64,000 nt of DNA from positions 100,636-164,635 of the forward strand of contig JAWPOF010000007.1 of the NCBI GenBank assembly GCA_033345275.1, given 5' to 3'. The position numbers and the translations under genes were made by a program. This document shows, in pieces, positions 657 to 49,172 of the stretch. This DNA comes from Alphaproteobacteria bacterium (GTDB lineage: Bacteria; Pseudomonadota; Alphaproteobacteria; Rs-D84). The notes beneath the pieces are model-generated. The model made no database searches and was not told the origin of the DNA. It worked only from the letters and a program-made list of their open reading frames with translations. Every line of letters starts with the position of its first letter. Position 1 is the first letter of the stretch.

Positions 657-979
657 CACAGGCCTTTTTATTCTTCTTGCCCTAGCTAAGGCAACACGCA
701 AATCAGTAGTCCCTAGAGACCGCCGAATTGATTTATATTTACCGTTACTTTGTTTTACATCTAATCTAAAATAAAATATGCCGTTGCGCAACACTAGATT
801 TTTTGTTTCACGTCCCAAATTCCGTCTCAACAGTTTTGCCCCATTTTACTAAATGTTGTTCAATGAGACACAAAAGTGGTATAATGTGCTGATTTTACAA
901 GAAAAACATTTGACTTTTGCCTATAAATAAGAAATACTGTTTCTATCTAAAGAAACAGCATTCCCTATTAGTATAAATC

Positions 980-10091: not shown

Positions 10092-11474
10092 ATGGCTTTA
10101 ATTTCTTTGTCAAAGTGTATCTTTGGATATAACGATAATAATTTATTGGATGCCGTTTCAATTGTTTTTAGTGACAATGAACACGTGGCAATTATTGGTG
10201 ATAACGGGTGTGGAAAGACAACGCTTTTGCGGTTGTTAACCGGGGAATTATTGCCCGATTCCGGCACCATTAACAAAGATGCCAGTATTTATATACTAAA
10301 TCAAATAAATGTATCGGATTCTAAAAGCGGCGGTGAACAACAAATGTTTGCATTAATGCGTGCTTTTGAATCAAATGCAGATATTTTATTATTGGACGAA
10401 CCGACTAATAATCTAGATGCGGATGCAAAACAAATATTCTTTAATCGTCTGAACGCATATCCAAATGGTGTTGTGATTGTTTCGCACGACCGGGAATTGT
10501 TGCAGAGTGTGGATAAAATAATTGAATTACATAATGGACAGTTGACGGTTTATGGGGGTAATTATGATTTTTATTTGGCGCAAAAGCAAATTGAAACCGA
10601 CAGCATTCATTCAAAATACAACAATGCACAGAAAACGATTGCGCGATTAAATAATACACTGAATATCGCCCAAAATACACGGCAGCATCATGAATTCAAA
10701 CAACAAAAAGAAATCAATAATTCGCGTCGCAGCAGATTGGCAGCAAATGCACTGCGTGGCAAAAGCCAAGAAACCGAGGCTAAAAAGCGTGCAATCATTC
10801 AAAAGAAATTAGACGAACAAATGGCGTTGCGCCAATCGCTGTCTGAACAAATGCGAAATGAAACGATTAAAATACCGGTACCAAATAAACCATTTTATGG
10901 CAAAGAACAGATAAATATATCTGGCTTGTGTTATTCGTATGGTGATAAAATTATATTCCAAGATTTTGATTTCGCAATGTATGGAAAATCAAGGATAAGA
11001 TTGGTTGGTAAAAATGGTTCTGGAAAATCTACATTGTTAAAAATTATTTGTGGCGAACTAAAACCAAATTTGGGAACAGTTAAAACTTATGGTAAGATAT
11101 CATATGTAAATCAAGATTTGTCCATTTTAGACCAAGACAAAACCATAGTTGAAAATATTATGGATATATCTGGATGCTTGAAACACGATGCGCATGCGAT
11201 TGCGGCGAACTTTGGATTTCGTGGGAATGCCGCGCAACAACTGGTCGGAACATTATCAGGCGGTGAACTTTTAAAGGCAACCTTGGCAGCAATTTTGGGT
11301 GGTGACAATCAACCAGATTTATTGATTCTGGACGAACCAACAAACAACCTGGAAATCAAAAGCATCGGCATATTGGAAGACGCCTTGAATCAATATACTG
11401 GCGCGATATTGCTTGTTTCTCATGATGAAATGTTTGTGAAAAATGTAAATATAGATACAGAGTTATATATTTAA
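10092..11474 (+). CDS. ABC-F-type ATPase (two nucleotide-binding domains, no TM domain); first NBD compressed/degenerate
   Basis: Two Walker A motifs (GDNGCGKTT, GKNGSGKST), two signature motifs (SGGEQQ, LSGGELL), two Walker B motifs (LLLDEP, LILDEP), coiled linker between. Confidence 0.6.
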   Translation: MALISLSKCIFGYNDNNLLDAVSIVFSDNEHVAIIGDNGCGKTTLLRLLTGELLPDSGTINKDASIYILNQINVSDSKSGGEQQMFALMRAFESNADILLLDEPTNNLDADAKQIFFNRLNAYPNGVVIVSHDRELLQSVDKIIELHNGQLTVYGGNYDFYLAQKQIETDSIHSKYNNAQKTIARLNNTLNIAQNTRQHHEFKQQKEINNSRRSRLAANALRGKSQETEAKKRAIIQKKLDEQMALRQSLSEQMRNETIKIPVPNKPFYGKEQINISGLCYSYGDKIIFQDFDFAMYGKSRIRLVGKNGSGKSTLLKIICGELKPNLGTVKTYGKISYVNQDLSILDQDKTIVENIMDISGCLKHDAHAIAANFGFRGNAAQQLVGTLSGGELLKATLAAILGGDNQPDLLILDEPTNNLEIKSIGILEDALNQYTGAILLVSHDEMFVKNVNIDTELYI

Positions 11475-11477
11475 TTT

Positions 11478-11570
11478 CGAAAAAGTTTGTAAATGTTCAA
11501 TTCACGAACTGATTTTATTCGTGATTTGTTGCGGTTCGGGAAAGATATAAAAACATTTTTGCAAATTTTG
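11478..11570 (+). repeat. intergenic repeat family, copy a (partial: IR-like element + conserved 'gatttgttgcggttcgggaaaga' block)
   Basis: Shares ttcacgaactgattttattcgtgatttgttgcggttcgggaaagatataaaaacatttttg with the copies at 12.3, 13.1, 14.3, 15.7 and 16.45 kb. Confidence 0.6.
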
Positions 11571-11606
11571 TGATATAATTATTTTTGAACGATAAAAAGG
11601 TAAAAA

Positions 11607-12302
11607 ATGAAAAAAGTTATTATAATCGCAATCGTTGCAATTTTTGGAACAATTGGATATTTTCTTATATCTTCAAACAGACATCACCAAAACTTAACCG
11701 ACCAACAAATTATTGAACGATTAGACACGGTTTTAAAACGAGTAGATGATTTCTTTGTTTCTGCTGATATTGTTCCAGAAAATTACAAACAAATGAAAAT
11801 ACAAGAAAATAGTAATGATGAATTTTTCTATCGCAACTTATGGTTGCGAGATGCAGCACATCAAATAAAGCCAAATCAAAATATGTTTTCTTTTTCTGCT
11901 GACGAAATAGATAAATATAAAATTCCGTCATATGTGGTCGGTTGTTCCGGTCGTGCTAATTTGTTTGCCAAATATGCAAAAGAAGCAGGTATAAAAGATC
12001 TTTATATTGTCGTCAGTGTCTATACACCCGATATTGGCAAACAACATATGAACGGACATCAGATTGTAGCAGTAAAAATGTCTAATGGTTTGCAATTGTT
12101 GGACCCTGCAAATGGTGCATATAATTTTAATCGTGCCAAAATAAATGGAAAATGTGAATTAAACGAAATGATTGATGCAACACACCAAGGCACAAAAGAA
12201 TACCAAATTGCCGCCATTATGACACAGGAAGAACATGAAAAATTAACTTCTGTTGAAAAACTTATGGAAGTTTATAACCGTGTTTCAAAAACATCAAAAT
12301 AA
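11607..12302 (+). CDS. membrane-anchored transglutaminase-like cysteine protease-like protein
   Basis: N-terminal TM; putative Cys-His-Asp triad (GCSGRANLFA...NGHQIV...LLDPANG). Confidence 0.4.
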   Translation: MKKVIIIAIVAIFGTIGYFLISSNRHHQNLTDQQIIERLDTVLKRVDDFFVSADIVPENYKQMKIQENSNDEFFYRNLWLRDAAHQIKPNQNMFSFSADEIDKYKIPSYVVGCSGRANLFAKYAKEAGIKDLYIVVSVYTPDIGKQHMNGHQIVAVKMSNGLQLLDPANGAYNFNRAKINGKCELNEMIDATHQGTKEYQIAAIMTQEEHEKLTSVEKLMEVYNRVSKTSK

Positions 12303-12417
12303 ACACCCAAACGGGTGTTTTTGATTTTTGGCAGGGCAACTCGCGCAATTCACGAGTTGATACTATGCGCGATTTGTGCGGCTCGGGAAAGAAGTTAAAG
12401 AATTTTTTGGATGTCCA
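12303..12417 (+). repeat. intergenic repeat family, copy b (terminator hairpin + 'ttggcagggcaactcgcgcaattcacgag' + conserved block)
   Basis: acacccaaacgggtgtttttgatttttggcagggcaactcgcgcaattcacgagttg...gatttgtgcggctcgggaaagaagttaaag. Confidence 0.65.
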
Positions 12418-12942
12418 TTATAACTTCTTTGACATATAGATTGCGGCTTCATCGTCGTTTTTCAAGTCGGCATACGGGTCAAGGTTTTTTCCATTCCACC
12501 ATAAACCTGTTCCGTCTGGAATAAAACCTCGCTTGATGTACAATCTTTGTGCAGAACCATAATTACGATTTATGCCAACCCCCAAATAAACCGTATCTGA
12601 ATATCTATGTGCTATATCTTCTGCCACTTGCATTAAAGCATTACCAATACCGCGTCTTCTGTATTTTGCAAGCACCCCAAAATCAACCAATTCAGGTAAT
12701 CCTTTACCGCCAAAAGAGCCGCCCATTGAATTTGGATACACATTGAAATACCCAGCGACATTACCCTTGTATTCCGCAACCAATGATACGCATTTTCCGT
12801 CGGCAACATCTTTTAATCGGCGTGTATATTTTTCAACTTTTTGGTCTGTCCAGCCTTGCAAATGTTCTTCATGGGTAATTATCTCCGGGTCTGTTTCAAC
12901 CATATCCCTTATAACTATATCGTTCACATTATAATAAATCAT
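12418..12942 (-). CDS. GNAT-family N-acetyltransferase
   Basis: RRRGIGNALM acetyl-CoA-binding motif. The listed 268-aa ORF is trimmed to the internal Met (MIYYNV...) because its upstream 94 codons are read-through of repeat copy c. Confidence 0.6.
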   Translation of the reverse strand: MIYYNVNDIVIRDMVETDPEIITHEEHLQGWTDQKVEKYTRRLKDVADGKCVSLVAEYKGNVAGYFNVYPNSMGGSFGGKGLPELVDFGVLAKYRRRGIGNALMQVAEDIAHRYSDTVYLGVGINRNYGSAQRLYIKRGFIPDGTGLWWNGKNLDPYADLKNDDEAAIYMSKKL

Positions 12943-13039
12943 TTTTGTGCCTCTATTATAGAATCTGTGCAAATTATATATCAATATACAAAAATTATCA
13001 ATAAGAACACCCGAAAAAGTTCGTAAATTGGCGAAACAT

Positions 13040-13215
13040 GCTGTATTTTCATCGCTCAACTTACGAACTCGCAAAACGATTGAAAATCTAATAAAAAAAC
13101 ACCCAAAGGTGGTTTTGATTTTTTGGCAGGGCAACTCGCGCAATTCACGAGCTGATTTTATGCGCGATTTGTTGCAGTTTGGGAAAGAAATTAAGGTGTT
13201 TTTGAATACATGTGT
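13040..13215 (+). repeat. intergenic repeat family, copy c (IR element gttcgtaaat..cttacgaac + terminator + ttggcagggcaactcgcgcaattcacgag + conserved block)
   Basis: Near-identical to copy b over the ttggcagggcaactcgcgcaattcacgag..gatttgttgcagtttgggaaagaaattaaggtgttttt portion. Confidence 0.65.
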
Positions 13216-13330
13216 GGATATCAAAGTGACTTAAAATACATTGACTTTAGGTATTATTATGATAGCATATTTTGTGTAAAAAAACATTTTTTAGTGAGCA
13301 GAGAGTGTAAAAAACAAAAAGGCAAAAACA

Positions 13331-13945
13331 ATGCAATTACAATCATCTGTTCATTTTGAGATTTTTTCCGAGCTGTTTTATTTAAAAAATATATCCGACC
13401 AGACTGGATACAAGCAGCTGTTGACATCATCGTCACGCAGAGATTCGATAGCTGCACAATCAAGGGACGGTACAATAAAACAAACTCAGGAACTAGCAGA
13501 ATCTGTCCGCGATTTCTGTTCGTGTATTGCGACAAGTGCCAAAAATCCCTTTTACCTGGACAAACTGACATACTTAGTTCAATTGTATCGCAAGGTTAGA
13601 ATTGCCGATACTGATGACAAAGAGTATTTTCAATATCATGATTTTAATGGTGACAAATTTGAATTTATACTGGCCACAAATGATAAATTGATATACCCAC
13701 GCGATATTAAAAGTGCTTTGCGTGTCCCATTTTATTTTAGCAGCATTATAAGCGATAAAGAATTAAAGTCGGATACCCCAGTATATATAGAAAAATATGA
13801 CACACATAATGCCGTTGTGCGACCATTGACAATGCAAGATAGGGTCGTTGATAAAAATTTGAACCAAATTTGGCCACTGGACACAAGAGAAACTCTAGCG
13901 GGGTTAAAGAAATTGCTAGAACAAACAACCGAAAATGTCCGGTAA
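13331..13945 (+). CDS. hypothetical protein (204 aa)
   Basis: ORF in repeat-delimited module; no family recognised. Confidence 0.4.
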   Translation: MQLQSSVHFEIFSELFYLKNISDQTGYKQLLTSSSRRDSIAAQSRDGTIKQTQELAESVRDFCSCIATSAKNPFYLDKLTYLVQLYRKVRIADTDDKEYFQYHDFNGDKFEFILATNDKLIYPRDIKSALRVPFYFSSIISDKELKSDTPVYIEKYDTHNAVVRPLTMQDRVVDKNLNQIWPLDTRETLAGLKKLLEQTTENVR

Positions 13946-13954
13946 ATTTTGACA

Positions 13955-14110
13955 TTTTTGTTCTAAAAAGTTCGAGAATTTATAAAATGGGTACAGTTTT
14001 GCGCGTCATATTTTCGAACTTGCACAAGTATTGGAAATCCAACAAAAAACCGCAAAAATGCGGTTTTATCAATCTTGGCAGCCCCAACATCGCTCCTCGA
14101 TACGCAATAA
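13955..14110 (+). repeat. module boundary: IR element + terminator + tRNA-Glu 3'-end pseudo-copy (ttggcagccccaac at 14075-14088)
   Basis: aaaaccgcaaaaatgcggtttt hairpin followed by the 13-14 nt that match the 3' end of tRNA-Glu at 17095. Confidence 0.65.
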
Positions 14111-14149
14111 ACAAAATCAAAAAATCTCCCTTGGTCGATTTTTTAAGAT

Positions 14150-14405
14150 TTTTCTAATTGTATATTCTCGTATTCGCCATGCGTGCCTGTGGGCGTTGCC
14201 CACGAAAACTGCGTTTTCATATGGTGCGTACGCACCAATATCGGCACTCTGACCGATCCGGTTGGGACTGCTTTTACAAAAATAAAAACCACCCAAAGGT
14301 GGATTTGATTTTTGGCAGGGCCATCTGTGCAATTCACGAGTTGATTTTATTTACGATTTATTACAGTTCGGGAAAGAAATTAAGATTTTTTTGAATAAAT
14401 ACTAT
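14150..14405 (+). repeat. intergenic repeat family, copy d (structured element + terminator + ttggcagggccatctgtgcaattcacgag + conserved block)
   Basis: Paralogous to 15510-15770; shares ctctgaccgatccggtYgggactgc and ttggcagggccatctgtgcaattcacga. Confidence 0.6.
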
Positions 14406-14448
14406 CATATCTGAACTATGTTATGCAAATTATTGACGTTTATATATT

Positions 14449-15324
14449 TTGTATTATATTATAAACGACAATAAGAGAAAAAACAAATTGGCAATTCAAA
14501 TAGATTTTGACCGAGCCTTGCATGATATGGAATGTCATGATTCAACAACACGGGTAACCTTTGGGCCGTATTCGCCGACATATCTTATCGCAACAGATGA
14601 AGATGCAAACCAAGATATCAACCGTTATATGTATAACGGAAAAGATAAAAAATACTGCGAAAAAGTTCTGACCGTATCGGCATCTGGCGACCATCCATTA
14701 TTTTGTAAAATGTATGGTGCTAAACAAATTACTACTTTTGATATAACATATGCCTCCAAAATAATTATGGATATTAAAACACTGGCTATAAAAACGCTTA
14801 CTTTTGACAGCTATTGGCAATTATTAAAAGATTTATGGAACAATCCGAACATTACATCTGTGTCAAATTTTGAGAGTATTATGCAAAACTTAGGTTCAAA
14901 CGAACAAAAATATATTCATACAATGGATAGAAAATTCGCATTATTTAACTTTGGAACACCGCCAGGTTATTATCATGTTTCGGATACAAATAACCAAAAA
15001 TCACTTTACGAAGGATTACATCTGGTTGATTTGCCAACATTTCCTTTTATTTGGACTGATATTGAACACCTGAACGCAAAATTGGGTGATAATACATATG
15101 ATTTTATACATTTATCCAATATCTTAGATTTTGTAAATGATGACATCAAAGTATCTGTTTTAAAACAATTGACGCAAAGATTGAATTATGGTGGTCGTAT
15201 ATTAATGCGCAGAATAAATGGCAATTATCAATTGGTCGACATATGTCAAAACATAGAAAAACAATCAGATGATTTAGCTTTTATCAATCGTTGGGAACAA
15301 ATGATTTTATTAAAATGCAGATAA
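14449..15324 (+). CDS. hypothetical protein, possible class I SAM-dependent methyltransferase fold
   Basis: VLTVSASGD (motif I-like), acidic residue after the next beta strand (TFDITYA), YDFIHLSNIL, YGGRILM. Confidence 0.4.
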   Translation: MYYIINDNKRKNKLAIQIDFDRALHDMECHDSTTRVTFGPYSPTYLIATDEDANQDINRYMYNGKDKKYCEKVLTVSASGDHPLFCKMYGAKQITTFDITYASKIIMDIKTLAIKTLTFDSYWQLLKDLWNNPNITSVSNFESIMQNLGSNEQKYIHTMDRKFALFNFGTPPGYYHVSDTNNQKSLYEGLHLVDLPTFPFIWTDIEHLNAKLGDNTYDFIHLSNILDFVNDDIKVSVLKQLTQRLNYGGRILMRRINGNYQLVDICQNIEKQSDDLAFINRWEQMILLKCR

Positions 15325-15334
15325 TCAAAACAAT

Positions 15335-15480
15335 TTAATAGTTCGTAAATGTGCAAAACGGGGCATGTTTTTACTACCTAATTTACGAACTTGTGAAAGT
15401 ATTAGAAAACAAAGAAAAAACCGACCGTTGCGGTCGGTTTGAATTTTTGGCAGCCCCAACTTCGCGCCTTGACAACCAAT
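15335..15480 (+). repeat. module boundary: IR element + terminator + tRNA-Glu 3'-end pseudo-copy (tggcagccccaac at 15448-15460)
   Basis: gttcgtaaatgtgcaaaacggggcatgtttttactacctaatttacgaac IR, ccgaccgttgcggtcgg hairpin, then tttggcagccccaac. Confidence 0.65.
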
Positions 15481-15509
15481 AATCAAACCCAGACACAAAA
15501 ACTCTATTG

Positions 15510-15770
15510 AGCATATCCGTTTTTGCAGGTTTGCTAATTGTTTGTCTGCGTATTGGTCATGCGCGCCATCTGTCACGTACACTTCGTTTACGTGTGGCAC
15601 ATAAATGTGCCTGGGCGCTCTGACCGATCCGGTCGGGACTGCTGATTCAAAATAAAAAGACCACCGAAATGGTGGTCGTTTTATTTTGGCAGGGCCATCT
15701 GTGCAATTCACGAACAAGGTTTATTCATGATTTGTTGATGTTTGGGAAAGATATTAAGGTGTTTTTGATG
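15510..15770 (+). repeat. intergenic repeat family, copy e
   Basis: See copy d. Confidence 0.6.
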
Positions 15771-15828
15771 TACTTATTGAAATAATCATGGTATATTGCG
15801 GTATAATGAATAACAAAAAGAGCACGCT

Positions 15829-16431
15829 ATGCATTATTTAATAGATTTGGATAATACTTTATTAACAACTTTCTTTTTTGATAAAGATAACAACGTAAAC
15901 TTCTATTGGTCACAGAATTTTAAAAACGATTTTGGACAATCCCCAAGAATTTTAAAAGATTTATTTTGTGAACCATTTTTTACTATGTTGTCAACCAATG
16001 ATGATTTACGGTCATACGTTAATACTTTCTTGCAAAAACATAATTTAAAAATAACAGCGGAAGAATTTTTGGAATATTGGTTGTCCCGAGATTCGCGAAT
16101 CAATCCAGATGTTTTAGATTGGATCCGCAAACATCATAATCCAGAAAACCATTTTCATATTGCTTCTAACCAAACAAATGTTCGTATGAACTACATTTGG
16201 GAACACAGACCTGAATTACACGAGTTTTTTGAAAATATTTTTATATCTGCCAACATCGGAACATCAAAACCAGACCCTGTGTTTTTTATAAAAATACAAC
16301 AAAAACTGAAAGTCCCCTTTTCTGAAATTTGTTTGATAGATGATGACCCTAAAAACACACAATCTGCGAAAACTTTAGGCATGCAAACCGTATTGTTTAA
16401 TTCAACGAACGACTTGCCTGAGTGTTTATAA
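15829..16431 (+). CDS. HAD-superfamily hydrolase
   Basis: N-terminal DLDNTLL (DxDxT) motif, C-terminal DDDPKN. Confidence 0.6.
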   Translation: MHYLIDLDNTLLTTFFFDKDNNVNFYWSQNFKNDFGQSPRILKDLFCEPFFTMLSTNDDLRSYVNTFLQKHNLKITAEEFLEYWLSRDSRINPDVLDWIRKHHNPENHFHIASNQTNVRMNYIWEHRPELHEFFENIFISANIGTSKPDPVFFIKIQQKLKVPFSEICLIDDDPKNTQSAKTLGMQTVLFNSTNDLPECL

Positions 16432-16439
16432 ATATTGCA

Positions 16440-16495
16440 ACAAATAGATTTTATTGTTGTTCGGGAAAGATGTTAAAGTGTTTTTGAAAAATTTA
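16440..16495 (+). repeat. intergenic repeat family, copy f (short: gttgttcgggaaagatgttaaagtgtttttga) followed by extended -10 tgatataat
   Basis: Conserved block directly upstream of the 16529 gene; tgatataat lies 30 nt upstream of a good RBS. Confidence 0.5.
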
Positions 16496-16528
16496 TGATA
16501 TAATGATACTATAACCAAGGAGTAAAAA

Positions 16529-16921
16529 ATGAAAAAATTATCTTTGTTAATTTTGCCAATAGCAGCCATGTTACTTACAGCATGTGAAAAAAAAGAAGAT
16601 ACAAAAAAGATAGAACGTTGTATCGACCAAATTGGTGAAAAGGTCGAATATGATGGTGAAAAACTATACGTATTCAGCACTTTAAATGTACATTCGAAAG
16701 ATGGTCAATCCGTCAAAATGTATTCAAATCATCGTGTAGAAATTCCCGCAGAAGAAGCCATTAAAATTTCAAAGAATTGGGATTTGAATAACATAAAGTT
16801 ATATACAAATACCGATAAAAAATTGCAAGAACACGAAAAAGATGCCTGTGAAACTTTATATAACTTGAATCTGTATATATCTTCGCATGATTTAGACATT
16901 GTTCATGAATATGAAAAATAA
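16529..16921 (+). CDS. lipoprotein (130 aa)
   Basis: Signal peptide with lipobox LLTAC. Confidence 0.5.
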   Translation: MKKLSLLILPIAAMLLTACEKKEDTKKIERCIDQIGEKVEYDGEKLYVFSTLNVHSKDGQSVKMYSNHRVEIPAEEAIKISKNWDLNNIKLYTNTDKKLQEHEKDACETLYNLNLYISSHDLDIVHEYEK

Positions 16922-16974
16922 TAAAAACATACACTATGAATATGGACAAAGAAAAAGGTTAGATTTCTAACCTT

Positions 16975-17094
16975 TTCTTTTCTAAAAGTTCGTAAATTGT
17001 CAAAACGGTGGGCGTTTTTGCCACCCGACTTACGAACCACAGAAAAGCAAAGAAAATAAATAAAAAAACCGCAAAAATGCGGTTTTATCTATTT
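16975..17094 (+). repeat. IR element + terminator immediately downstream of tRNA-Glu 3' end
   Basis: gttcgtaaattgtcaaaacggtgggcgtttttgccacccgacttacgaac nested hairpin, then aaaccgcaaaaatgcggtttt. Confidence 0.6.
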
Positions 17095-17170
17095 TGGCAG
17101 CCCCAACCGGATTCGAACCGGTGTTCTCGCCTTGAAAGGGCGGTGTCCTAGGCCTCTAGACGATGGGGCC
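17095..17170 (-). tRNA. tRNA-Glu (anticodon TTC)
   Basis: Reverse complement GGCCCCATCGTCTAGAGGCCTAGGACACCGCCCTTTCAAGGCGAGAACACCGGTTCGAATCCGGTTGGGGCTGCCA; anticodon loop CTTTCAA. Confidence 0.8.
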
Positions 17171-17247
17171 AAAACTGCCGTGTTCATATCGAACGCCGAC
17201 GAATTATACATTTTGTTTCGGCCCTTGTCAAGTGAATATGAACGAAT

Positions 17248-17688
17248 TTATTCAGCTGCTTCTTCGGTTGTTTCAGTCGTGGCTGTGTCGCCTGGCAGTT
17301 CTTCAACCTGAACAAAAACGATTTCTTTGCCATCTGTTGCGGTCAGTGTCAGTTTGCCATCTGCCAGTTCATATGTTTCGACCGTTGGCATAAACTCAAA
17401 ATATTCACGTTCTGTTTCCATAGCCTCGGCATCACCCATCATCATAGTGGACGCAAAGCCTTCGAATTTGATGTTGTCGCCGTCCGCGCTATAGCCACCA
17501 TTATAGCGATTTACAACCCCGCCATACACACGCATTTCAACCGGGTCAAAAGATAATGTGATATCAACCCCAGGCTGGGCCGATATAAAGTTTGCGCCTT
17601 TTAACATTTCTGGATTTTGGGTTGTGTTATCCCCACATGCCGTCAATGCCAATGCACATGCGCCAATTGCTAATAATTTGAATTTCAT
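17248..17688 (-). CDS. lipoprotein, HslJ-like (META domain)
   Basis: Lipobox LTACG; two repeats of a ~60-aa unit consistent with a META domain. Confidence 0.45.
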   Translation of the reverse strand: MKFKLLAIGACALALTACGDNTTQNPEMLKGANFISAQPGVDITLSFDPVEMRVYGGVVNRYNGGYSADGDNIKFEGFASTMMMGDAEAMETEREYFEFMPTVETYELADGKLTLTATDGKEIVFVQVEELPGDTATTETTEEAAE

Positions 17689-22313: not shown

Positions 22314-22404
22314 GGAGATGTCGCATAGTTGGTCTAGTGCGCTACATTGGAAATGTAGTATACCCGCAAGGGTATCAAGGGTTCGAATCCCTTCATCTCC
22401 GCCA
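22314..22404 (+). tRNA. tRNA-Ser (anticodon GGA), class II
   Basis: GGAGATG acceptor, anticodon stem CTACA/TGTAG with loop TTGGAAA, long variable arm, T-arm GGGTTCGAATCCC, CTCCGCCA 3' end. Confidence 0.85.
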
Positions 22405-22846: not shown

Positions 22847-23917
22847 ATGGCTCCAGTACCGAATTCTAAATTAGCATTAAAAAGACAACAGCTTATTGCG
22901 GATAACCAAAAGTTAGAATTGCAAAGTGAAACGCTACAAAACGATATATCACAAGCACAGGAAACGTTGGCTTCATTGCAATCAAATATTGATGTGATCA
23001 GACAGGAGTTATCAGATTCCAGGTTGGAAAAAGAAGGGCTGATTAGTGATGTCAGTCAATTAAAAACAGAAAAAGAAGAACTAAAAAATGAAATTGGAGT
23101 CTCTGATGATGCTGATGTATATCCAGAAGGATCGCTAAATTATGAAAAACAAAAGTTGAAAAATGCGATTAAAAAGTTGGAGACTGATGGACAAAAGCGT
23201 GAAGAAGAAATCGATGCGAAAACAAAAGAATTAGATGTTGCATACCAAAAACATAAAGCAAAAATAGAAAAAAATATAACAATTATAGATAATGTAAAAA
23301 AATTTAAAGAAGAATCCGTTCGAAATATGCGCTTCTACGGTCGATGCATGGTGTTAGCGATTTTTTTAGTATTGGTGGTTGGTTGGTTTTCTCTGCATAA
23401 CATTTCTGAGACTTTGCAACTTTTTTCAGAACAGCTGAAAGTTATTAATGTCGGTCTTGTTCCGAATGGGTGGAACTGGGTGTATGCCGCACTTTCAATT
23501 GTCATCGTTAAGATTCCCAATGCTTTATTGTTTGCGGGTTTGTTGTTTGTGTTATACAAAATATTTGGGGTGTTGTTTGGTGTGTACGAAAAAATTAATA
23601 CCGAAAAAAGAAAAATATCAACAATAGAAGCATTAGTGCATCATATGAACGAACAGAGTGTCGGAATTGTACTTGGACGAGAAATAGATTATGAAAACAA
23701 AGATGAGATTGAAAACGCCAAAGACGATTTGAAATGGAACATATTATCAGAATATTTTTCACAGACCGCAGAAGATTCTGCTGACTCAGATAATGTATTA
23801 CGCCGCGAAAATAAAGTTCTAAGGGAAATATTTTTGGATAAACACAAGAAGTATAGTTTTAATGGCCATATGGTCGGTGCGGAGATGGAAACAGGAAACC
23901 CTACAAAATCATTATAA
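22847..23917 (+). CDS. hypothetical coiled-coil protein with two TM helices
   Basis: N-terminal heptad-rich region, central hydrophobic segments; present only in the left copy of the duplicated recombinase module. Confidence 0.4.
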   Translation: MAPVPNSKLALKRQQLIADNQKLELQSETLQNDISQAQETLASLQSNIDVIRQELSDSRLEKEGLISDVSQLKTEKEELKNEIGVSDDADVYPEGSLNYEKQKLKNAIKKLETDGQKREEEIDAKTKELDVAYQKHKAKIEKNITIIDNVKKFKEESVRNMRFYGRCMVLAIFLVLVVGWFSLHNISETLQLFSEQLKVINVGLVPNGWNWVYAALSIVIVKIPNALLFAGLLFVLYKIFGVLFGVYEKINTEKRKISTIEALVHHMNEQSVGIVLGREIDYENKDEIENAKDDLKWNILSEYFSQTAEDSADSDNVLRRENKVLREIFLDKHKKYSFNGHMVGAEMETGNPTKSL

Positions 23918-25501
23918 CTGATTACCTTTTGCAATTTGAAATAAATCATTAACATTGATATGTATTTTTCCGGACAGGATTTCATTAACCTTGTCCGGAT
24001 TCATATACGCGATATCTAGGTGTCGGTAAAACTGGCGTGGTGAAGTGTGCTCTTCTTGGAATATTCTGTGGATATCCCCATCCCTTTCATATAATTCTCT
24101 AAATTTCCATGCGGTGGCAAAGGCCTTTAATATCAGGTGGTTGTTTTCTGTAATGCTCAGCGTGCCATTACGCCCTCCGCTAAATCTGGTATTAGCATAT
24201 CGACGCAGTACAACCGGTCGCACAATCGTCACATTATCGCCATTTACCGTGTATTCCATTGGGTTTGCATTTTGATTAATGTGATATTCAGATAAAAATG
24301 CATTGAATAACTGAGGATTGGTATTGATATGAAATATCAGTTTTTCTTGTGAATAAATAGCTCGGTCAATCATAACGCGAACCAATTCTCGTCTTTGCAG
24401 GTATGACAAGTCATCCCACACAATCCGTTTTAAAGCCACGACTCCATTCTGAGACAGGGCACTCATATCACTGTCCAGAAACTCGGCTACAACAGACATG
24501 GCTATTTCATCCACCTGTGCCGCCGGCAGATAGAATCCCCGTGTCCCATAGTAATATGGCCCCATCTTGTCCTTGGGGCATGCGTGCTGATTGGCAAAAC
24601 GTACACCTTTGTCGTTATACAGCTTTCGTGACAGCAGGTTTGGCGACCGCCTGCGATGACTGGTATTGTTAGAATTCGCCCTCAATGCATCCTGTACCTG
24701 TTCAAATACATCTGGCGACAAGATCGCCTGATGTTCGCCACGGGCAACATTATTGCTGACTTTATTTTCAATCATTCCGATATAGATTTTATCTCGCAGA
24801 ATCTTATGCATGCTATGCGGGGCAATCGGTTTCCCTCCGCGTTGCACCCCCTTGGCGGTTGTCCATGCCTTGGCGCGAATACCGTTGCTTTCGGCCCACA
24901 GGGTCAAGTCGTTCACAGATTGCAGCTCCAAGTATTTACCAAACAGTTGTCTAACTTGCTCGGCTTCGGCTGGATTTACAATCAGCTTCTTGTCCACGAC
25001 ATCATACCCCAACCGTGGCATGCCACCCATCCATATGCCTTTTGCTTTACTTGCGCGTATTTTATCCCGTACTCGTTCGGATGAAACCTCTCGTTCAAAT
25101 TGGGCGAACGACAGCAACATATTCAGCGTCAATTTACCCATAGATGTACTGGTGTCAAACGATTGGGTTATGGACACAAAGTTCGCGTTATACTTGTTGA
25201 AATACTGCATCATCTTATGAAAATCTAATATGGAACGTGATAACCGATCAACCTTATAAACCACCACGGTATTAACCAAGCCACGTGCCATATCGTCCAA
25301 CATTTGTTTCAGGGCAGGCCGTTCCATAGTCCCACCAGAAATCGCCGCATCACTGTATGTTTTACAATATTGCCAACCGTTGAACGATTGGGACGCAATA
25401 TATGCCTTGCATGATTCTTCCTGATTTTGTAATGAGTTAAACTCCATATCCAACCCATGCTCGGTTGATTTTCGTGTATAAATCGCACATCTAACTGTCA
25501 T
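23912..25501 (-). CDS. large serine recombinase (resolvase/invertase N-terminal domain + recombinase + zinc-ribbon/coiled-coil C-terminus)
   Basis: AIYTRKST...VVYKVDRLSRS resolvase catalytic domain, 529 aa. Confidence 0.8.
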   Translation of the reverse strand: MTVRCAIYTRKSTEHGLDMEFNSLQNQEESCKAYIASQSFNGWQYCKTYSDAAISGGTMERPALKQMLDDMARGLVNTVVVYKVDRLSRSILDFHKMMQYFNKYNANFVSITQSFDTSTSMGKLTLNMLLSFAQFEREVSSERVRDKIRASKAKGIWMGGMPRLGYDVVDKKLIVNPAEAEQVRQLFGKYLELQSVNDLTLWAESNGIRAKAWTTAKGVQRGGKPIAPHSMHKILRDKIYIGMIENKVSNNVARGEHQAILSPDVFEQVQDALRANSNNTSHRRRSPNLLSRKLYNDKGVRFANQHACPKDKMGPYYYGTRGFYLPAAQVDEIAMSVVAEFLDSDMSALSQNGVVALKRIVWDDLSYLQRRELVRVMIDRAIYSQEKLIFHINTNPQLFNAFLSEYHINQNANPMEYTVNGDNVTIVRPVVLRRYANTRFSGGRNGTLSITENNHLILKAFATAWKFRELYERDGDIHRIFQEEHTSPRQFYRHLDIAYMNPDKVNEILSGKIHINVNDLFQIAKGNQL

Positions 25502-27521: not shown

Positions 27522-28784
27522 ATGGCGGAAAGGTTTTATCTTTGCATTGATTTAAAGAGTTTTTTTGCCTCGGTCGAAGCGGTTGACCGTGGGCTGGACC
27601 CATTTACAACAAACCTGGTGGTGGCGGACCCGTCACGGGGGCGGGGGTCGGTCTGTTTGGCGATAACGCCGGCGATGAAGGCGCTGGGGATTCGCAATCG
27701 TTGCCGGATCTTTGAAATCCCGCGTGGGGTCGAATACATCACCGCCATGCCCCGCATGAAAAAGTATATGGAGGTATCTGCCCAGATTTACGGTATTTAT
27801 CTGCGCTATATCTCGCCCGAAGACATCCATGTCTATTCCATTGACGAATGCTTTATCGATATCACGCCTTACTTGAAAATGTATAAACGGTCGCCCAAAG
27901 AAATGGCGATAATGCTGATGGATGCGGTGCGGGCCGAGACGGGAATATGCGCCACCGCCGGCATTGGTACGAACCTGTTCCTGGCCAAGGTTGCGCTGGA
28001 TATCACGGCCAAGAAAGTCCCCGACCATATCGGATACTTGGATGCGGAATCGTTCCGCCAGCACCTGTGGCATCATCGGCCAATAACGGACATCTGGAAC
28101 ATCGGTGCGGGAATTGCAAGGCGATTGGAAAAGTACGGTGTGTATGACCTGTATGGGGTGACGCAGATGCCACCCGAAACCCTGTACAAAGAATTCGGCA
28201 CAAATGCGGAATACCTGATTGATCATGCGAACGGCATCGAGCCGTGCACGATTGCCGACATTCACAATTATCAGGCGAAATCCCATTCCCTGTCCAACGG
28301 CCAGATTCTGTTTGAGGACTATAACTTTGATGATGCGATGATTGTGATGCAGGAAATGGTGGATAACCTGGTCTTGGAATTGGTGGAAAAGAACCTGGTG
28401 GCGGATGAAATATCACTGTCGGTGGGGTATTCACGTGATGTGCGACGCCCAACCGGGGGCAGTCGTAAATTGCCAGCGCACACATCGTCCTATAAATCAT
28501 TGGTGGCGGAGTTTATGCGATTGTATCGGGAAACAACGGACCGGCGCACGCCGATACATAAATTGACGGTGGGGCTGGGGAACCTGGTTGATGCGGATAC
28601 TGTGCATTTGCAACTGGATTTATTTGCAGACACAAGGGCGGATGAACGCGAAAGTAAACTGCAACATGCGCTGTTGGATATCAAGGGCAAGTTTGGCAAG
28701 AATGCCGTCCTGCGTGGCATAAATTATCACGAGAAATCCACAGGCCGCAAACGTAATACTTTGGTTGGGGGACATAATGGCTGA
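27522..28784 (+). CDS. Y-family DNA polymerase (UmuC/UvrX-like translesion polymerase)
   Basis: FYLCIDLKSFFASVE start, SIDECFID catalytic motif, little-finger domain; 420 aa. Confidence 0.8.
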   Translation: MAERFYLCIDLKSFFASVEAVDRGLDPFTTNLVVADPSRGRGSVCLAITPAMKALGIRNRCRIFEIPRGVEYITAMPRMKKYMEVSAQIYGIYLRYISPEDIHVYSIDECFIDITPYLKMYKRSPKEMAIMLMDAVRAETGICATAGIGTNLFLAKVALDITAKKVPDHIGYLDAESFRQHLWHHRPITDIWNIGAGIARRLEKYGVYDLYGVTQMPPETLYKEFGTNAEYLIDHANGIEPCTIADIHNYQAKSHSLSNGQILFEDYNFDDAMIVMQEMVDNLVLELVEKNLVADEISLSVGYSRDVRRPTGGSRKLPAHTSSYKSLVAEFMRLYRETTDRRTPIHKLTVGLGNLVDADTVHLQLDLFADTRADERESKLQHALLDIKGKFGKNAVLRGINYHEKSTGRKRNTLVGGHNG

Positions 28785-48575: not shown

Positions 48576-49172
48576 TTATGCCCGTTTTGGGTAGTTTTTG
48601 TGTTCTTTCAAATAATCTGAATATAGTTTTGACCATGTCATTAAATCATAAAATTTTTTGTTCATATAAACTGCCTGTCTAGAAACGCCATCTAAAATAA
48701 AACCAGTTTGTTCAGCTAGCTTTGCAGAATCTTTATTTTCTACAATATTTACACGCATGATTTTATTAACCTTTAGTTTATTAAATGCGATTTCTTCTAT
48801 AGCGCGGTATGATTCTGCGGCAAAACCATGACCACGAGCATTTGATAGCAACCATACGGTGTTTAATTTTAATGATAGGTTCTCTTTATAAAAAGATATT
48901 TTTCGGACGCCGATGAACTGACTATTATGAAATATATAAAATATACATGCATCGTTTTTTTCGCTTTCTGCATGATATTGCATCATTTTCAAGGTATCAG
49001 AGACAGATGTTGGCAGTATTTTTGGGGTTTTCATCAAAGGTTCATATTTATAATCTTGTGGATTTTCATTTTTTAACGCAGCAAATATGATTTTTGCATT
49101 TTGTATATTAGGTTCTAAATGTTTTAACACTAATCTTGCAGAGCGTAAATCTTTTGAAAAATATTTTATCAT
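48576..49172 (-). CDS. GNAT N-acetyltransferase, RimJ/RimL-like
   Basis: 198 aa; NARGHGFAAE acetyl-CoA motif. Confidence 0.65.
   Translation of the reverse strand: MIKYFSKDLRSARLVLKHLEPNIQNAKIIFAALKNENPQDYKYEPLMKTPKILPTSVSDTLKMMQYHAESEKNDACIFYIFHNSQFIGVRKISFYKENLSLKLNTVWLLSNARGHGFAAESYRAIEEIAFNKLKVNKIMRVNIVENKDSAKLAEQTGFILDGVSRQAVYMNKKFYDLMTWSKLYSDYLKEHKNYPKRA

Follow-up and report, generated by a model that had tools for sequence, protein, structure and literature searches.

An array of swappable, mostly single-gene cassettes joined by one conserved junction at a tRNA-Glu gene of Candidatus Enterousia

We found that the array next to tRNA-Glu in the analysed stretch of DNA (64 kb, hereafter the window) consists of swappable, mostly single-gene cassettes that are joined by one conserved junction of ~200 bases. 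The host belongs to Candidatus Enterousia (order Rs-D84), uncultured gut Alphaproteobacteria with genomes of <1 Mb. A preliminary description of this DNA had reported a family of repeats with four parts between six small genes. All four parts are present where it had placed them, far above chance frequency, and in a scan of the whole window the repeats are confined to 11480-17107 (Table 1). Of the six genes, the HAD hydrolase and lipoprotein genes share one module, which corrects the earlier picture of single-gene modules. Pfam matches bear out the earlier GNAT and HAD assignments and identify one of the former 'unknowns' as a DUF3419/methyltransferase-like gene, while the label 'transglutaminase-like' for gene 1 is unsupported. 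The GNAT gene lies on the minus strand, which corrects the earlier annotation.

Table 1. Features of the array and its flanks, in window coordinates
Feature	Position	Strand	Basis and remarks
ABC-F ATPase gene	10092..11474	+	Pfam ABC_tran, ABC_tran_Xtn; conserved flank at array end far from tRNA
Terminal site AAAAAGTTTGTAAATGTTCAATTCACGAAC	11480..11509	+	Read from sequence; D4 left half-site GTTTGTAA and inverted D1 half-site TCACGAAC, 9 nt apart
Partial D1 core CAATTCACGA..GTTCGGGAAAGA	11494..11573	+	nhmmer, 133-copy D1 profile: 75 bits, model positions 57-136
Putative extended -10 promoter TGATATAAT	just after partial D1 core of 11494..11573	+	Read from sequence
Cassette gene 1, 231 aa	11607..12302	+	ORF; no Pfam match
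D1 junction: terminator, then TTGGCAGGGC..CAATTCACGAG..GCTCGGGAAAGA	12289..12413	+	D1 profile 88 bits; terminator 12301-12320
Cassette gene 2, GNAT acetyltransferase, inverted in slot	12418..12942	-	Pfam Acetyltransf_1
Complete junction: D4 (13015-13097), terminator, D1 (13085-13211)	13015..13211	+	D4 and D1 profiles
Cassette gene 3, 204 aa	13331..13945	+	ORF; no Pfam match
D4 (13966-14048) and bidirectional terminator	13966..14070	+	D4 profile
EL-A structured element, read on tRNA strand	14075..14276	-	Covariance-model match 111 bits; covarying core 14154-14261
D1 junction	14280..14401	+	D1 profile 99 bits
Cassette gene 4, 291 aa, DUF3419/methyltransferase-like	14449..15324	+	Pfam
D4 (15337-15419) and bidirectional terminator (15418-15440)	15337..15440	+	D4 profile, terminator scan
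EL-B structured element	15447..15647	-	Covariance-model match 92 bits; nhmmer; core 15534-15632
D1 junction	15649..15771	+	D1 profile 98 bits; terminator 15659-15677
Two-gene module, HAD hydrolase and lipoprotein	15829..16921	+	Pfam
HAD hydrolase gene	15829-16431	+	Pfam
Core remnant between HAD and lipoprotein genes	16451-16498	+	D1 profile positions 89-136
Putative lipoprotein gene, 130 aa	16529-16921	+	Second gene of HAD module
D4 (16984-17066) and terminator shared with tRNA-Glu (17065-17086)	16984..17086	+	D4 profile, terminator scan
tRNA-Glu(UUC), array anchor	17095..17170	-	ARAGORN, Rfam

The junction has the order D4 (two inverted GTTCGTAA half-sites), bidirectional terminator and D1 (TTGGCAGGGCC..CAATTCACGA..GTTYGGGAAAGA). 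The TTGGCAGGGC..CAATTCACGAG variant and the conserved block just upstream of the genes form one element of ~125 nt, D1; this block has six good matches in the 64-kb scan, all within the array (0.54 expected), besides two further matches with three mismatches upstream of the array (10098 and 11432). Terminator-like hairpins number 16 in 11400-17250, compared to 3.9 +/- 1.6 in shuffles, and most of them are bidirectional; the one in 13966..14070 is the same hairpin as that behind tRNA-Glu (repeats D7 and I12), a gene with a consensus promoter at 17231-17203 (12/12 matches). Each slot holds one or two genes in either orientation with its own predicted promoter, and is closed at its right end by D4 (GTTCGTAA..TTACGAAC) and a bidirectional terminator. 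The slots are separated by a 65-nt core (TTTGGCAG..CAATTCACGA..GTTYGGGAAAGA) that is linked to neither adjoining gene: within D1, the terminator columns track the upstream gene and the columns after GGGAAAGA the downstream gene, whereas the middle 65 nt track neither. The conserved upstream block, previously suggested as a possible shared promoter or regulator site, is not the promoter but the right edge of this core, and the predicted cassette promoter (extended -10) lies just downstream of it; from there on the sequence travels with the cassette. Changes in the D4 arms are mostly uncompensated (8 double vs 32 single changes at one pair), and D4 is therefore better read as paired putative protein-binding sites than as a hairpin. 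The GTTCGTAA-type half-sites resemble the T-loop box GTTCGAAT; the likeness of D1 to tRNA-Glu is limited to CTGCCA, and it is D1, rather than a true tRNA repeat, that bounds most cassettes.

That the cassettes are exchanged is seen from ten contigs with an identical ABC-F protein, in which the first position is taken by gene 1, gene 3 or the lipoprotein gene. Gene 3 is the first cassette in L002, L005, L007 and L008 and the second in L001, while an allele of the lipoprotein gene comes first in L001, L003, L004 and L009; in all ten contigs the terminal site is common up to ..CACGA and divergent beyond. Another species (L109) has an empty site, in which the ABC-F stop codon is directly followed by D4, terminator and tRNA-Glu, the same arrangement as at the tRNA-proximal end of the window array. 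Cassette content thus differs in the tRNA-Glu neighbourhood of relatives, which agrees with the earlier proposal of 'cassette-like units of an uncharacterised kind' stacked at the tRNA-Glu 3' end. Between species, cassettes are 94-98% identical, compared to 75-87% for the flanking ABC-F and META-domain genes (the META-domain protein gene lies beyond tRNA-Glu, and every contig that carries it ends at the array). For gene 1 the nucleotide identity is 95-97% in L092 and L079, which are two other species, and for GNAT gene 2 the identity is 93.7-97.1% in four others (L105, L048, L065, L089), with an identical protein in a different context in L136. Identity is 96% for the HAD gene in L090, 98% for the lipoprotein gene in L018 and about 80% for gene 4 in L055 and L102.

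The array is not peculiar to one strain, and its repeats are not REP-like. Scanning genomes for the pattern CAATTCACGA-N24-32-TYGGGAAAGA, we found at least 119 stretches, at least 109 of them in the family, from at least about 93 genomes, and the D4-terminator-D1 junction separates cassettes in at least 93 species-level genomes of Ca. Enterousia/order Rs-D84, with up to 7-8 cassettes per 8 kb. Among the matches listed, 65 tRNA-Glu genes were called in array loci (56 UUC and 9 CUC); in every pair listed D1 and tRNA-Glu are convergent, with the tRNA 3' of D1 and the nearest D1 usually 0.7-1.9 kb away. Some genomes contain two arrays, one per tRNA-Glu isoacceptor gene. The junctions do contain palindromes and terminators, like BIMEs, and one could imagine that a static group of small genes was invaded by an intergenic repeat of a generic REP/BIME-like kind. 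However, the repeats occur at only one or two loci per genome, always next to tRNA-Glu, and long contigs (260-530 kb) have the motif at a single place; near-identical strains differ in gene content, an empty site exists, and species share cassettes at the high identities given above. Relatives with the six genes but without the repeats were not found. The present data argue strongly against such an invasion, which we regard as extremely improbable.

As the most likely mechanism we favour serial integration at the tRNA 3' end combined with exchange inside the 65-nt core that the junctions have in common, both carried out in trans by a putative enzyme; that the recombination is site-specific we infer from the anatomy alone. 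Units carrying EL, the structured element described below, would integrate site-specifically at the 3' end of the tRNA, close to the T-loop, which would restore the tRNA and push its old end outward, as in the classical attL/attR picture. EL may act as the attachment module, in the form of folded single-stranded DNA or RNA. Cassettes would then be inserted, lost and reshuffled by recombination within the shared core and at GTTCGTAA-type half-sites, and the gene for the enzyme may lie at another place in the genome or on an element that visits it. Serial insertion at the tRNA-Glu 3' end had been proposed before, and the architecture is indeed tied to this gene; but near-identical contigs differ at the array end far from the tRNA, and simple serial integration, which predicts variation at the tRNA, is therefore not the sole source of variation. 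The short likeness of D1 to tRNA-Glu, the mostly uncompensated changes in the D4 arms and the failure to see any circular form also count against the favoured mechanism.

The main rival is RecA-driven exchange without any dedicated recombinase. The junctions (about 200 bp, 80-90% identity even between species) would serve as portable homology arms, at which RecA-dependent homologous recombination swaps, deletes or inserts cassettes, either following the uptake of DNA or between a genome's two arrays, and the link to tRNA-Glu would be ancestral. Indeed, the core is unlinked to its flanks, and in one species a given cassette is combined with 3-4 different core variants; scattered homologous crossovers predict such a pattern, whereas one fixed crossover point does not. 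Even inside one species the core is a mosaic (L002 and L003 have identical cores, and the genes after GTGTTTTTG differ), and there are chimeric products, among them a compact junction in L001 and the mismatched outer helix of EL-A (see below). A ComEC-type competence gene is among the flanking genes, and the lack of a recombinase in the loci examined (see below) also speaks for this rival. However, exact identity between cores is short, and boxes of 10-15 nt are a poor RecA substrate. Homology alone also leaves unexplained that the boxes CAATTCACGA, GGGAAAGA and GTTCGTAA/TTACGAAC are nearly invariant across at least ~93 species while the neighbouring bases vary, and that arrays sit at two tRNA-Glu genes (UUC, CUC) which have only their 3' ends in common. 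Moreover, the tRNA-end repeats correspond to the tRNA variant at their locus and have a fixed starting point close to the T-loop, a signature of site-specific integration. Purely RecA-dependent exchange is a real possibility, though in our view not a probable one.

The sequence TTGGCAGCCCCAAC, i.e. the last 13 nt of tRNA-Glu(UUC) plus one base, has exactly three occurrences in the window: at 14075, at 15447 and, within the tRNA, at 17094. The displaced copies noticed earlier are real copies of the tRNA-Glu end, but they are not bare scars: both are the 3' ends of EL, which is ~195-200 nt long. EL-A has a 13-nt direct copy at its 3' end (14088-14075) and an inverted copy at its 5' end (14271-14256, repeat I25); in EL-B the direct copy lies at 15460-15447. 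Duplications match the resident tRNA at 26 loci (25 other genomes and the window), with lengths of 13 nt (type 1), 19-21 nt (type 2 and CUC) and 24 nt (L118). In general, EL consists of covarying helices, on the tRNA strand, between inverted and direct 3'-end copies of whichever tRNA precedes it. Its helices are paired in 95.5% of cells (86% in shuffles, with 0/500 shuffles reaching 95.5%; slid controls at most 46%), and 12 pairs are changed on both sides. The excess of G-U pairs (27) over A-C cells (5) places the structure on the tRNA strand, on which 23/24 copies fold better. EL-A has a minimum free energy of -72.6 kcal/mol (z = -5.4); its outer helix joins an A-type 5' strand to a 3' strand of type B, which marks EL-A as a recombinant. 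The covariance model gave 42 matches, each on a single strand only and, in the loci checked, downstream of tRNA-Glu on the same strand. In metagenomes a tRNA lies no more than 400 nt from 94/146 EL copies, in every case upstream of EL and on its strand; nine different tRNAs are followed by EL (isoacceptors for Glu, Gln, Tyr, Arg, Pro and Ser). Among 80 EL-tRNA pairs, 51 show a clear inverted copy of the end of that tRNA, with 45/51 stopping 18 or 21 nt from its 3' end, and 50 a clear direct copy, with 42/50 extending fully to the 3' end. The ends of many EL copies are truncated or degenerate, which counts against our main reading.

The same features might instead reflect a small RNA gene, whose product would mimic the acceptor/T-stem minihelix of the preceding tRNA; the EL 5' end would pair with the 3' end, ending NCCA, and the tRNA-end copies would be functional parts of the RNA. 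Covariation with G-U pairs on the tRNA strand, the low z-score, the constant co-orientation of EL with a tRNA, the terminator of its own that follows EL, and a terminal helix equivalent to acceptor plus T-stem (about 12-18 bp, with CCA kept in some copies) would all fit. However, we found no promoter before EL and a terminator between EL and the tRNA, EL has no Rfam family match, and many copies are truncated, tandem or chimeric, some without a 3' end. Folded DNA also tolerates G-T pairs, and EL flanks cargo exactly like the outer repeat of an integrated element. We thus consider a small RNA gene rather unlikely and prefer to read EL as a putative attachment module.

The arrays themselves, as noted before for the one in the window, contain no integrase: no recombinase gene was found within them (109 + 120 loci examined), no circular or extrachromosomal form was seen, and plasmid, phage and viral collections gave no matches. 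At some array edges there is a conserved Hin/Pin-like small serine recombinase (about 200 aa), which could serve the array as IntI serves an integron. In L021, L029 (both sides) and L047 an orthologue with Resolvase and HTH_7 domains is 0.2-1 kb away from the last D1 or D4, another adjoins EL in L202, the gene is 7-9 kb from the array in L260-L264, and it is conserved across the lineage (74-81% identity). In every context examined, however, its constant partner at a distance of about 300 nt is a divergent gene for a YadA-anchor adhesin. A hix-like site (TTAACCTTGGTT) accompanies the copies examined in L021 and L029a, which is the layout of a phase-variation switch; this site bears no relation to the GTTCGTAA half-sites. 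Judging from gene tables only, L265-L270 have no known cassette families within 10 kb of the invertase gene, and the 64-kb window has no copy of it. It is therefore very doubtful that this invertase is the array recombinase.

The array is not an integron, and we give hardly any credence to an integron or a cluster of attC sites without integrase (CALIN). Mostly single-gene cassettes, variation between strains and integron-typical cargo (GNATs, nucleotidyl- and phosphotransferases, a restriction-modification pair) are shared features, but there is no IntI-type tyrosine recombinase near the array. The junction differs from attC, with arms GTTCGTAA..TTACGAAC in place of RYYYAAC..GTTRRRY and in the opposite order; it is conserved in sequence and not in structure only, and the cassettes carry their own predicted promoters and terminators. 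Given the same arrangement in at least 93 related species and no integrase beside it, the array resembles an integron built from different parts. On balance, we lean towards the view that it is a platform in the chromosome, anchored at the tRNA-Glu 3' end, for mobile gene cassettes, and a feature of the Ca. Enterousia/order Rs-D84 lineage as a whole.

The repeat-punctuated gene array beside tRNA-Glu(UUC) reported in the preliminary description proved to be real: all of its repeat parts were found, and they are confined to the array. The genes between the ABC-F gene and the tRNA do form a cluster, but they are actually seven genes in six modules and not six genes, the HAD hydrolase and the lipoprotein sharing one module, and the gene that had been called transglutaminase-like encodes a 231-aa protein without a family match. 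Three repeat families punctuate the array, here termed D4, D1 and EL, and none of them has a copy elsewhere in the 64 kb. The tRNA-end-like segment and the conserved block upstream of the next gene, which had been listed as separate parts, are both present but united in a single element, D1. Of TTGGCAGCCCCAAC the window has exactly three copies, two of them in the array and the third in the tRNA, and the conserved block has six good matches, all within the array (0.54 expected), with two weaker ones (3 mismatches) at 10098 and 11432, just upstream of the array. Terminator-like hairpins number 16 compared with 3.9 expected, and a bidirectional terminator is found at nearly every junction. Directly downstream of the D1 core lie extended -10 promoters (TGATATAAT), called from sequence reading only. 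The gene adjoining tRNA-Glu is the lipoprotein cassette.

Features of the array, its repeat families and the recombinases considered (window coordinates unless a locus from another genome is named)
Feature	Coordinates	Strand	Size	Remarks
tRNA-Glu(UUC)	17095-17170	-		array anchor
ABC-F gene	10092-11474			far flank of array
Gene 1			231 aa	cassette gene without family match
GNAT acetyltransferase gene		-		cassette gene
Gene 3			204 aa	cassette gene without family match
DUF3419/methyltransferase-like gene			291 aa	cassette gene
HAD hydrolase + putative lipoprotein genes			130 aa (lipoprotein)	two-gene module
D4			83 nt	AAAAGTTCGTAAAT..N..ACTTACGAAC + conserved tail
D1			~125 nt	terminator, then TTGGCAGGGC..CAATTCACGAG..GATTTGTTG..GTTYGGGAAAGA..GTGTTTTTG
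EL	14075-14276; 15447-15647		~200 nt	two window copies
Tyrosine integrase gene	1-830		about 600 aa	DUF6538 + Phage_integrase; cut by window start
tRNA-Ser(CGA)	980-1070	-
tRNA-Ser(GGA)	22314-22404	+
Element at tRNA-Ser(GGA)	22314-49474		~27 kb	integrated element
Large serine recombinase gene	23912-25501	-	529 aa	near tRNA-Ser(GGA)
ImpB/UmuC gene	27522-28784			in tRNA-Ser(GGA) element
FtsK/SpoIIIE-like ATPase gene	31535-32548			in tRNA-Ser(GGA) element
GNAT (Acetyltransf_3) gene	48576-49172	-		near outer end of tRNA-Ser(GGA) island
Direct repeat of tRNA-Ser(GGA) 3' end	49461-49474		14 nt	outer end of island
ORF beyond outer repeat	49672-50046	-	124 aa
Hin/Pin-like invertase gene	L021 1250-2028; L029 380-1152; also L260-L270		~200 aa	small serine recombinase

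Scanning one genome per species with the pattern CAATTCACGA-N24-32-TYGGGAAAGA, we obtained at least 119 stretches, about ten of which are chance matches in unrelated phyla. At least 109 belong to the family; their sources are about 93 different MAGs of rumen, horse, sheep, yak and human gut, which go under the names Candidatus Enterousia or uncultured gut Alphaproteobacteria. All are members of the order Rs-D84, which, Ca. Enterousia included, consists of uncultured gut bacteria with genomes <1 Mb (PMC12306168). All comparisons draw on MAGs and short metagenome contigs, whose assemblies break at the arrays. A profile made from 133 D1 copies found 255 copies (1-7 per locus) in the window and the loci fetched by then. 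The usual junction reads D4, terminator, D1 without gaps, the cargo of 1-2 genes in either orientation being placed between D1 and the following D4; 8-kb tiles, and even adjacent tile pairs, can be array throughout. In the array loci 65 tRNA-Glu genes were called (56 UUC and 9 CUC); D1 and tRNA-Glu are convergent in every listed pair, the nearest D1 usually being 0.7-1.9 kb off, and some genomes have two arrays, one per tRNA-Glu isoacceptor gene. Random dispersal over the genome had been named beforehand as the mark of a generic REP-like element; we did not see it, the motif occupying a single place in contigs of 260-530 kb. A REP/BIME-type dispersed repeat was therefore rejected, given also the lack of copies outside the array in the 64 kb. 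Plasmid, phage and viral collections gave no matches to the array, so that such an origin was rejected as well, our literature search found the arrays described nowhere, and exact-protein look-ups of the cassette genes returned the same sample only, or nothing.

The comparison with relatives, proposed from the start, shows that cassette content differs among them. Among ten metagenome contigs with an identical ABC-F protein the first cassette is gene 1, gene 3 or the lipoprotein gene; their common sequence ends at ..GTTTGTAAATGTTCAATTCACGA and they diverge beyond it. An empty site exists in another species (L109), where the ABC-F stop codon is directly followed by D4, a terminator and tRNA-Glu. 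The META-domain protein gene lies on the far side of the tRNA, and every contig that includes it breaks off at the array. Copies of the window cassettes in other species show 94-98% DNA identity (GNAT, 97.1% in L105 and L048 and 95.0% in L065; lipoprotein gene, 97.7% in L018; gene 1, 96.7% in L092; HAD, 96.4% in L090), and the flanking ABC-F and META-domain genes of lineages sharing cassettes are just 75-87% identical. The cargo includes several GNATs, Pol-beta nucleotidyltransferases, APH-type kinases, an rRNA adenine dimethylase (Erm/KsgA-type), adenine deaminase, esterase, a MafB19-like deaminase, phage lysozyme, a MuF-like protein, BspA-type LRR proteins, surface proteins and a complete HinP1I-type restriction-modification pair. 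Strain variation, the empty site, cross-species sharing and this flexible-genome cargo establish that the cassettes are mobile.

Two loci show unusual arrangements. In L021 (4050-5750) an ABC-F gene lies cassette-like between D1 and D4, with two further genes and the invertase beyond, and the 'flanking' ABC-F gene may once have been cargo. In L136 (5340-5420 and 137-5057), which encodes an identical GNAT protein, D1 is cut directly after GTGCAATT, and the at least 5 kb past the cut code for an HTH_17 protein, for an MT-A70-like methylase and for a C5 DNA methylase. What we see there is a large insertion or else a cassette whose break falls within the CAATT centre of the D1 palindrome.

Where the cassettes are exchanged was judged by a boundary test, which records for each profile column how alike junctions are when the gene is shared on one side but not on the other (for D4 the linkage statistics comprise about 20 pairs). 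The terminator columns of D1 are linked to the upstream gene, and the columns past GGGAAAGA, a stretch including the putative extended -10 promoter, to the downstream gene. The 65-nt core from TTTGGCAG to GGGAAAGA is linked to neither. Within one species the lipoprotein cassette occurs with three core versions and gene 3 with four; since the core is linked to neither gene and single cassettes carry several cores, the core is an exchange zone, with exchange on both sides. L002 and L003, two contigs with identical ABC-F, have an identical core and different genes after it.

Several short boxes recur at the junctions: GTTCGTAA (D4 left), TTACGAAC (D4 right), TCACGAAC (D1), TTCGTGAT, which is weaker, and GTTCGGGA. 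They look like one half-site in differing orientations and spacings. The left and right half-sites face each other at the ABC-F end with 9 nt between them, compared with 34 nt in D4; the shorter spacing recalls what we take to be the layout of a simple recombinase site such as loxP. The half-site is also similar to the tRNA T-loop box GTTCGAAT, and in D1 its distance to TGGCAG is about that of the T-loop in the tRNA. Both likenesses may serve as leads. Good matches to the 13-mer half-site are found within the array only, except for a 2-mismatch match in the window (ATTTCGTGAATTG at 44090-44102, in the 3' end of a radical-SAM gene, 43230-44126), which is probably due to chance.

In 181 distinct copies the sequence of D4 is conserved, and the inner stem is paired in about 60%. 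Its arms are strongly conserved, yet their changes are mostly one-sided and uncompensated; we therefore rejected a conserved hairpin, and D4 fits protein-binding sites better. D1 does not behave as an RNA structure either, as its internal palindrome is replaced, not compensated, in variant forms. A sigma-54 promoter or a CtrA box in D1 was rejected because the spacing is wrong on sequence reading, and a displaced end of tRNA-Glu(CUC) or another tRNA was rejected as the source of its TTGGCAGGGCC because no tRNA of the loci ends in GGCCCTGCCA. In L028 and L108 some D1 copies begin with TTGGCAGCCCCATCTGTG, a hybrid of the genuine end of tRNA-Glu (..GCCCCA) and the common D1 form (..GGGCCA).

The main rival to a dedicated enzyme is RecA exchange on the conserved junctions, which would account for an unlinked, mosaic core, for the chimeric products that exist and for the absence of a recombinase, and leaves unexplained the near-invariance of the short boxes, the arrays at two different tRNA-Glu genes and tRNA-end repeats that have a fixed start and match the resident tRNA. 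Enzyme-driven integration and homology-driven shuffling may act together.

The absence of an integrase from the array, already remarked on in the preliminary description, extends to the array loci and the metagenome EL loci: using the window's integrase as jackhmmer query, we found no other tyrosine recombinase in the window, the 109 array loci and 120 metagenome loci. The window itself holds two recombinases, each by a tRNA other than tRNA-Glu. The tyrosine integrase, 10 kb away from the array, is encoded directly downstream of tRNA-Ser(CGA). Both L002 and L003 have it; L001, with an identical ABC-F protein, has a release-factor gene instead and keeps the array. The tRNA-Ser(CGA) island is therefore strain-variable, and its integrase was rejected as the array enzyme. 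The large serine recombinase belongs to the element at tRNA-Ser(GGA), whose further genes include those for an ADP-ribosylglycohydrolase, a WYL protein and DUF2779. At the outer end of this island, in front of a direct repeat of the tRNA 3' end, stands another small module, different from EL but similar to it in general build; thus a recombinase-bearing, full-size element uses the same kind of end module, which makes the island the best hint to candidate enzymes for the array. Its Acetyltransf_3 GNAT falls into a protein cluster that is array cargo elsewhere (e.g. L082 2611-3180), and the same cargo therefore moves between both kinds of element. Just beyond the outer repeat, the 124-aa ORF shows homology to the large serine recombinase, over the C-terminal part of the latter, and is probably what is left of an older element that used this tRNA.

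A lineage-conserved Hin/Pin-like recombinase stands at the edge of some arrays. In L260-L270 its invariable companion, at a distance of about 300 nt, is a divergent gene for a YadA-anchor adhesin; in L021 and L029 (L029a copy) the region upstream of the recombinase gene has a hix-like palindrome (TTAACCTTGGTT), and in several genomes no cassette genes are found within 10 kb of it. On its constant adhesin partner and hix-like site it was rejected as the array enzyme; it is probably the phase-variation invertase of an adhesin switch.

The 'pseudo-copies' of the tRNA 3' end noted earlier are true duplications of the resident tRNA end, but they are not bare: each is one end of an EL copy. On the tRNA strand, the parts of EL are, in order, an inverted tRNA 3' end (GCAGTCCCAACCGGAT), nested helices and hairpins, an A+T-rich hairpin and a direct copy of the tRNA end; a terminator comes after it. 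The direct repeats in the window measure 13 nt and start at 14075, 15447 and 17095. Repeats of 9-24 nt that match the locus' own tRNA-Glu variant were found in 26 loci (25 other genomes and the window), the direct copy being 13 nt long in type 1, 19-21 nt in type 2 and at tRNA-Glu(CUC), and 24 nt in L118. Only EL-bearing units are flanked by direct tRNA repeats; D1-only cassettes share merely CTGCCA with the tRNA. In 21 distinct sequences 95.5% of the scaffold cells are paired, compared with 86% in shuffles (0/500 reach the observed value) and at most 46% when the partners are slid, and 12 pairs are changed on both sides. With 27 G-U pairs against 5 A-C cells, the structure resides on the tRNA strand. 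This strand folds better in 23 of 24 copies, and the folding z of EL-A, one of the two window copies, is -5.4. A covariance model recovered 42 EL copies in 100 sources, each on a single strand, among them 'mini' forms with the outer helices only; at the checked loci EL lies downstream of tRNA-Glu on the same strand. When searched against Rfam 15, only tRNAs reached the gathering score, and up to E = 10 no model covered EL or D1 convincingly. EL units are sometimes tandem, e.g. in L056. In EL-A (14154-14261) the outer helix is mismatched, its 3' strand TGGCG (~14176-14180) being of the L025 type and its 5' strand GGTCA (~14249-14253) of the type of EL-B, the other window copy; EL-A is therefore a recombinant of two EL subtypes.

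Metagenomes scanned for the EL pattern gave at least 146 copies in at least 120 stretches. Among the matches listed, 94 of 146 copies have a tRNA within 400 nt, and all 94 lie downstream of it on its strand. The listed tRNAs are Glu-UUC (22), Gln-UUG (21), Tyr (16), Arg-ACG (11), Pro-UGG (9), Ser-CGA (6), Ser-GGA (5), Pro-GGG (2) and Gln-CUG (2), and the tRNA-end copies at the two ends of EL follow whichever of these nine adjoins. A clear inverted copy of the adjoining tRNA's own end was seen in 51 of 80 EL-tRNA pairs, and 45 of the 51 break off at 18 or 21 nt from the tRNA 3' end; a clear direct copy was seen in 50 of 80 and reaches the very 3' end of the tRNA in 42 of the 50. D1 was found in 16 and D4 in 25 of the 120 listed stretches. 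As EL occurs at many tRNAs and D1 or D4 in few stretches, EL is independent and retargetable, and the D4/D1 array is a speciality of tRNA-Glu. The frequent metagenome neighbours of EL are housekeeping genes only. A second family of small elements (~150 nt, ..GGTTCGACA..GTAGATTTT..) is bounded by a degenerate inverted copy and a direct copy of a tRNA 3' end and often stands in tandem with EL behind tRNA genes (window 49320-49475; L079; L136 5410-5600; L145, L243 and L251).

Our analysis establishes a conserved platform on which cassettes are mobile and have a zone of exchange in common; the end of the resident tRNA is truly duplicated, and a structured module, specific to one strand, contains its target twice. 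For the way in which these work together we propose that EL-carrying units would enter at the 3' end of the tRNA, close to the T-loop, through site-specific integration. Two stretches of the window, 14089-15446 and 15461-17093, comprise EL, D1, cargo, D4 and terminator each, between 13-nt repeats. The order of inverted copy, scaffold, direct copy and displaced flank could be the remnant of a folded single-stranded attachment site, as in CTXphi-type elements, and would equally suit an RNA pairing with both target strands. After entry, recombination at the half-sites and within the 65-nt core would add, remove and reorder cassettes, which would explain why the differences among near-identical contigs fall at the tRNA-distal end. 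A bolder reading, which we consider rather unlikely, makes EL a programmable targeting module and, together with D4/D1, the system one of nucleic-acid-guided, integron-like gene capture in bacteria with very small genomes. The ~150-nt scaffold would then stand between segments complementary and identical to the last 11-21 nt of the chosen tRNA gene, with homology starting by the universal T-loop box, and EL, as an RNA guide or a folded single strand, would aim a recombinase at the 3' end of any tRNA gene.

Among known systems, integrons and CALINs resemble the arrays in their long runs of 1-2-gene cassettes at a fixed chromosomal place, strain-variable and drawn from a pool common to several species, with cargo mainly of small modification enzymes and genes of unknown function. 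Unlike integrons, the arrays have no IntI, attI or attC, are anchored at a tRNA gene 3' end and use a sequence-conserved junction of ~200 bp with a terminator in its middle; integron cassettes are mostly promoterless and served by a common promoter, whereas here they have terminators and predicted promoters of their own. An attC is an imperfect palindrome of 57-141 bp, conserved in structure and not in sequence, whose 5' side reads RYYYAAC and whose 3' side reads GTTRRRY. D4 is conserved in sequence, its arms GTTCGTAA..TTACGAAC having GTT at the 5' end, AAC at the 3' end and C in an R position. We rejected an integron/attC (CALIN) reading because of the consensus and the order of the arms and the missing IntI. 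To our knowledge, integrons are reported absent from Alphaproteobacteria, the class of this host.

The tycheposons of Prochlorococcus integrate at tRNA 3' ends in streamlined genomes and have partial tRNA copies on their flanks; as new elements arrive, older ones are displaced into the island and remnants pile up, and the elements measure several kb, with their own tyrosine recombinase and replication genes (bioRxiv 10.1101/2020.12.28.424599). The array is likewise tRNA-anchored and accretive in a streamlined genome, and direct repeats of the target tRNA flank its EL-bearing units; in contrast, the units of the array are 0.2-1.6 kb long, lack a recombinase, share one conserved junction and include a structured module with an inverted target copy. 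An integrase of their own, usually beside the tRNA in such islands, is missing from the array, and in the tRNA-Ser(GGA) island a serine recombinase takes that place.

The dif modules of Acinetobacter plasmids are small, lack a recombinase gene, have sites of inverted half-sites and are thought to be shuffled by XerC/XerD encoded elsewhere (PMC6449649, PMC13141974). Recombinase-free units, inverted half-sites and an enzyme presumed to act from elsewhere are common to both systems, but the arrays are chromosomal and tRNA-anchored, and their junctions also hold a terminator and a tRNA-like end. Sites of dif modules span 28 bp (XerC arm, 6-bp spacer, XerD arm) in alternating orientation. By eye, GTTCGTAAAT loosely resembles TTTCGCATAA, which we take to be the XerC arm (the host's own dif may differ); no XerD-type arm follows 6 bp on and no 11-6-11 layout is seen, the half-sites being 9 or 34 nt apart.

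In the attP(+) of CTXphi-type IMEX, an inverted target copy and, across a spacer, the direct copy that is fused to the target can pair within a single strand and rebuild the double-stranded target. EL shows exactly this order, with inverted and direct target copies around a spacer beside the displaced target, and its structure is strand-specific. Its target is a tRNA 3' end and not dif, varies by copy (nine tRNAs), and its spacer is a conserved multi-helix scaffold; CTXphi integrates via a single-stranded circle and a host recombinase, a route that EL may share. CIMEs of the Streptococcus ICESt3 family are att-flanked units without recombination genes, tandem at a tRNA-type site and served by an enzyme in trans. 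The arrays, too, stack integrase-free units at a tRNA-type site, but these are far smaller and far more numerous and have a conserved junction in common, with no known helper element. We rate the system as belonging among tRNA-anchored cassette or island platforms, with two parts that appear to be undescribed, the D4/D1 junction and the EL module.

In Ca. Enterousia/Rs-D84 the cassette arrays extend over 6 kb to more than 16 kb even though the genomes stay below 1 Mb; very reduced genomes can thus keep a flexible, horizontally shared gene pool with no plasmids or prophages in sight, and several of the cargo families are sources from which resistance genes arise. The junction and EL offer exact sequences for enzyme hunting and for tracking cassette traffic in gut metagenomes. 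The system would be an integron-like solution in Alphaproteobacteria, made from different parts, and should EL indeed act as a guide, it would be a categorically new way to aim recombination at tRNA genes.
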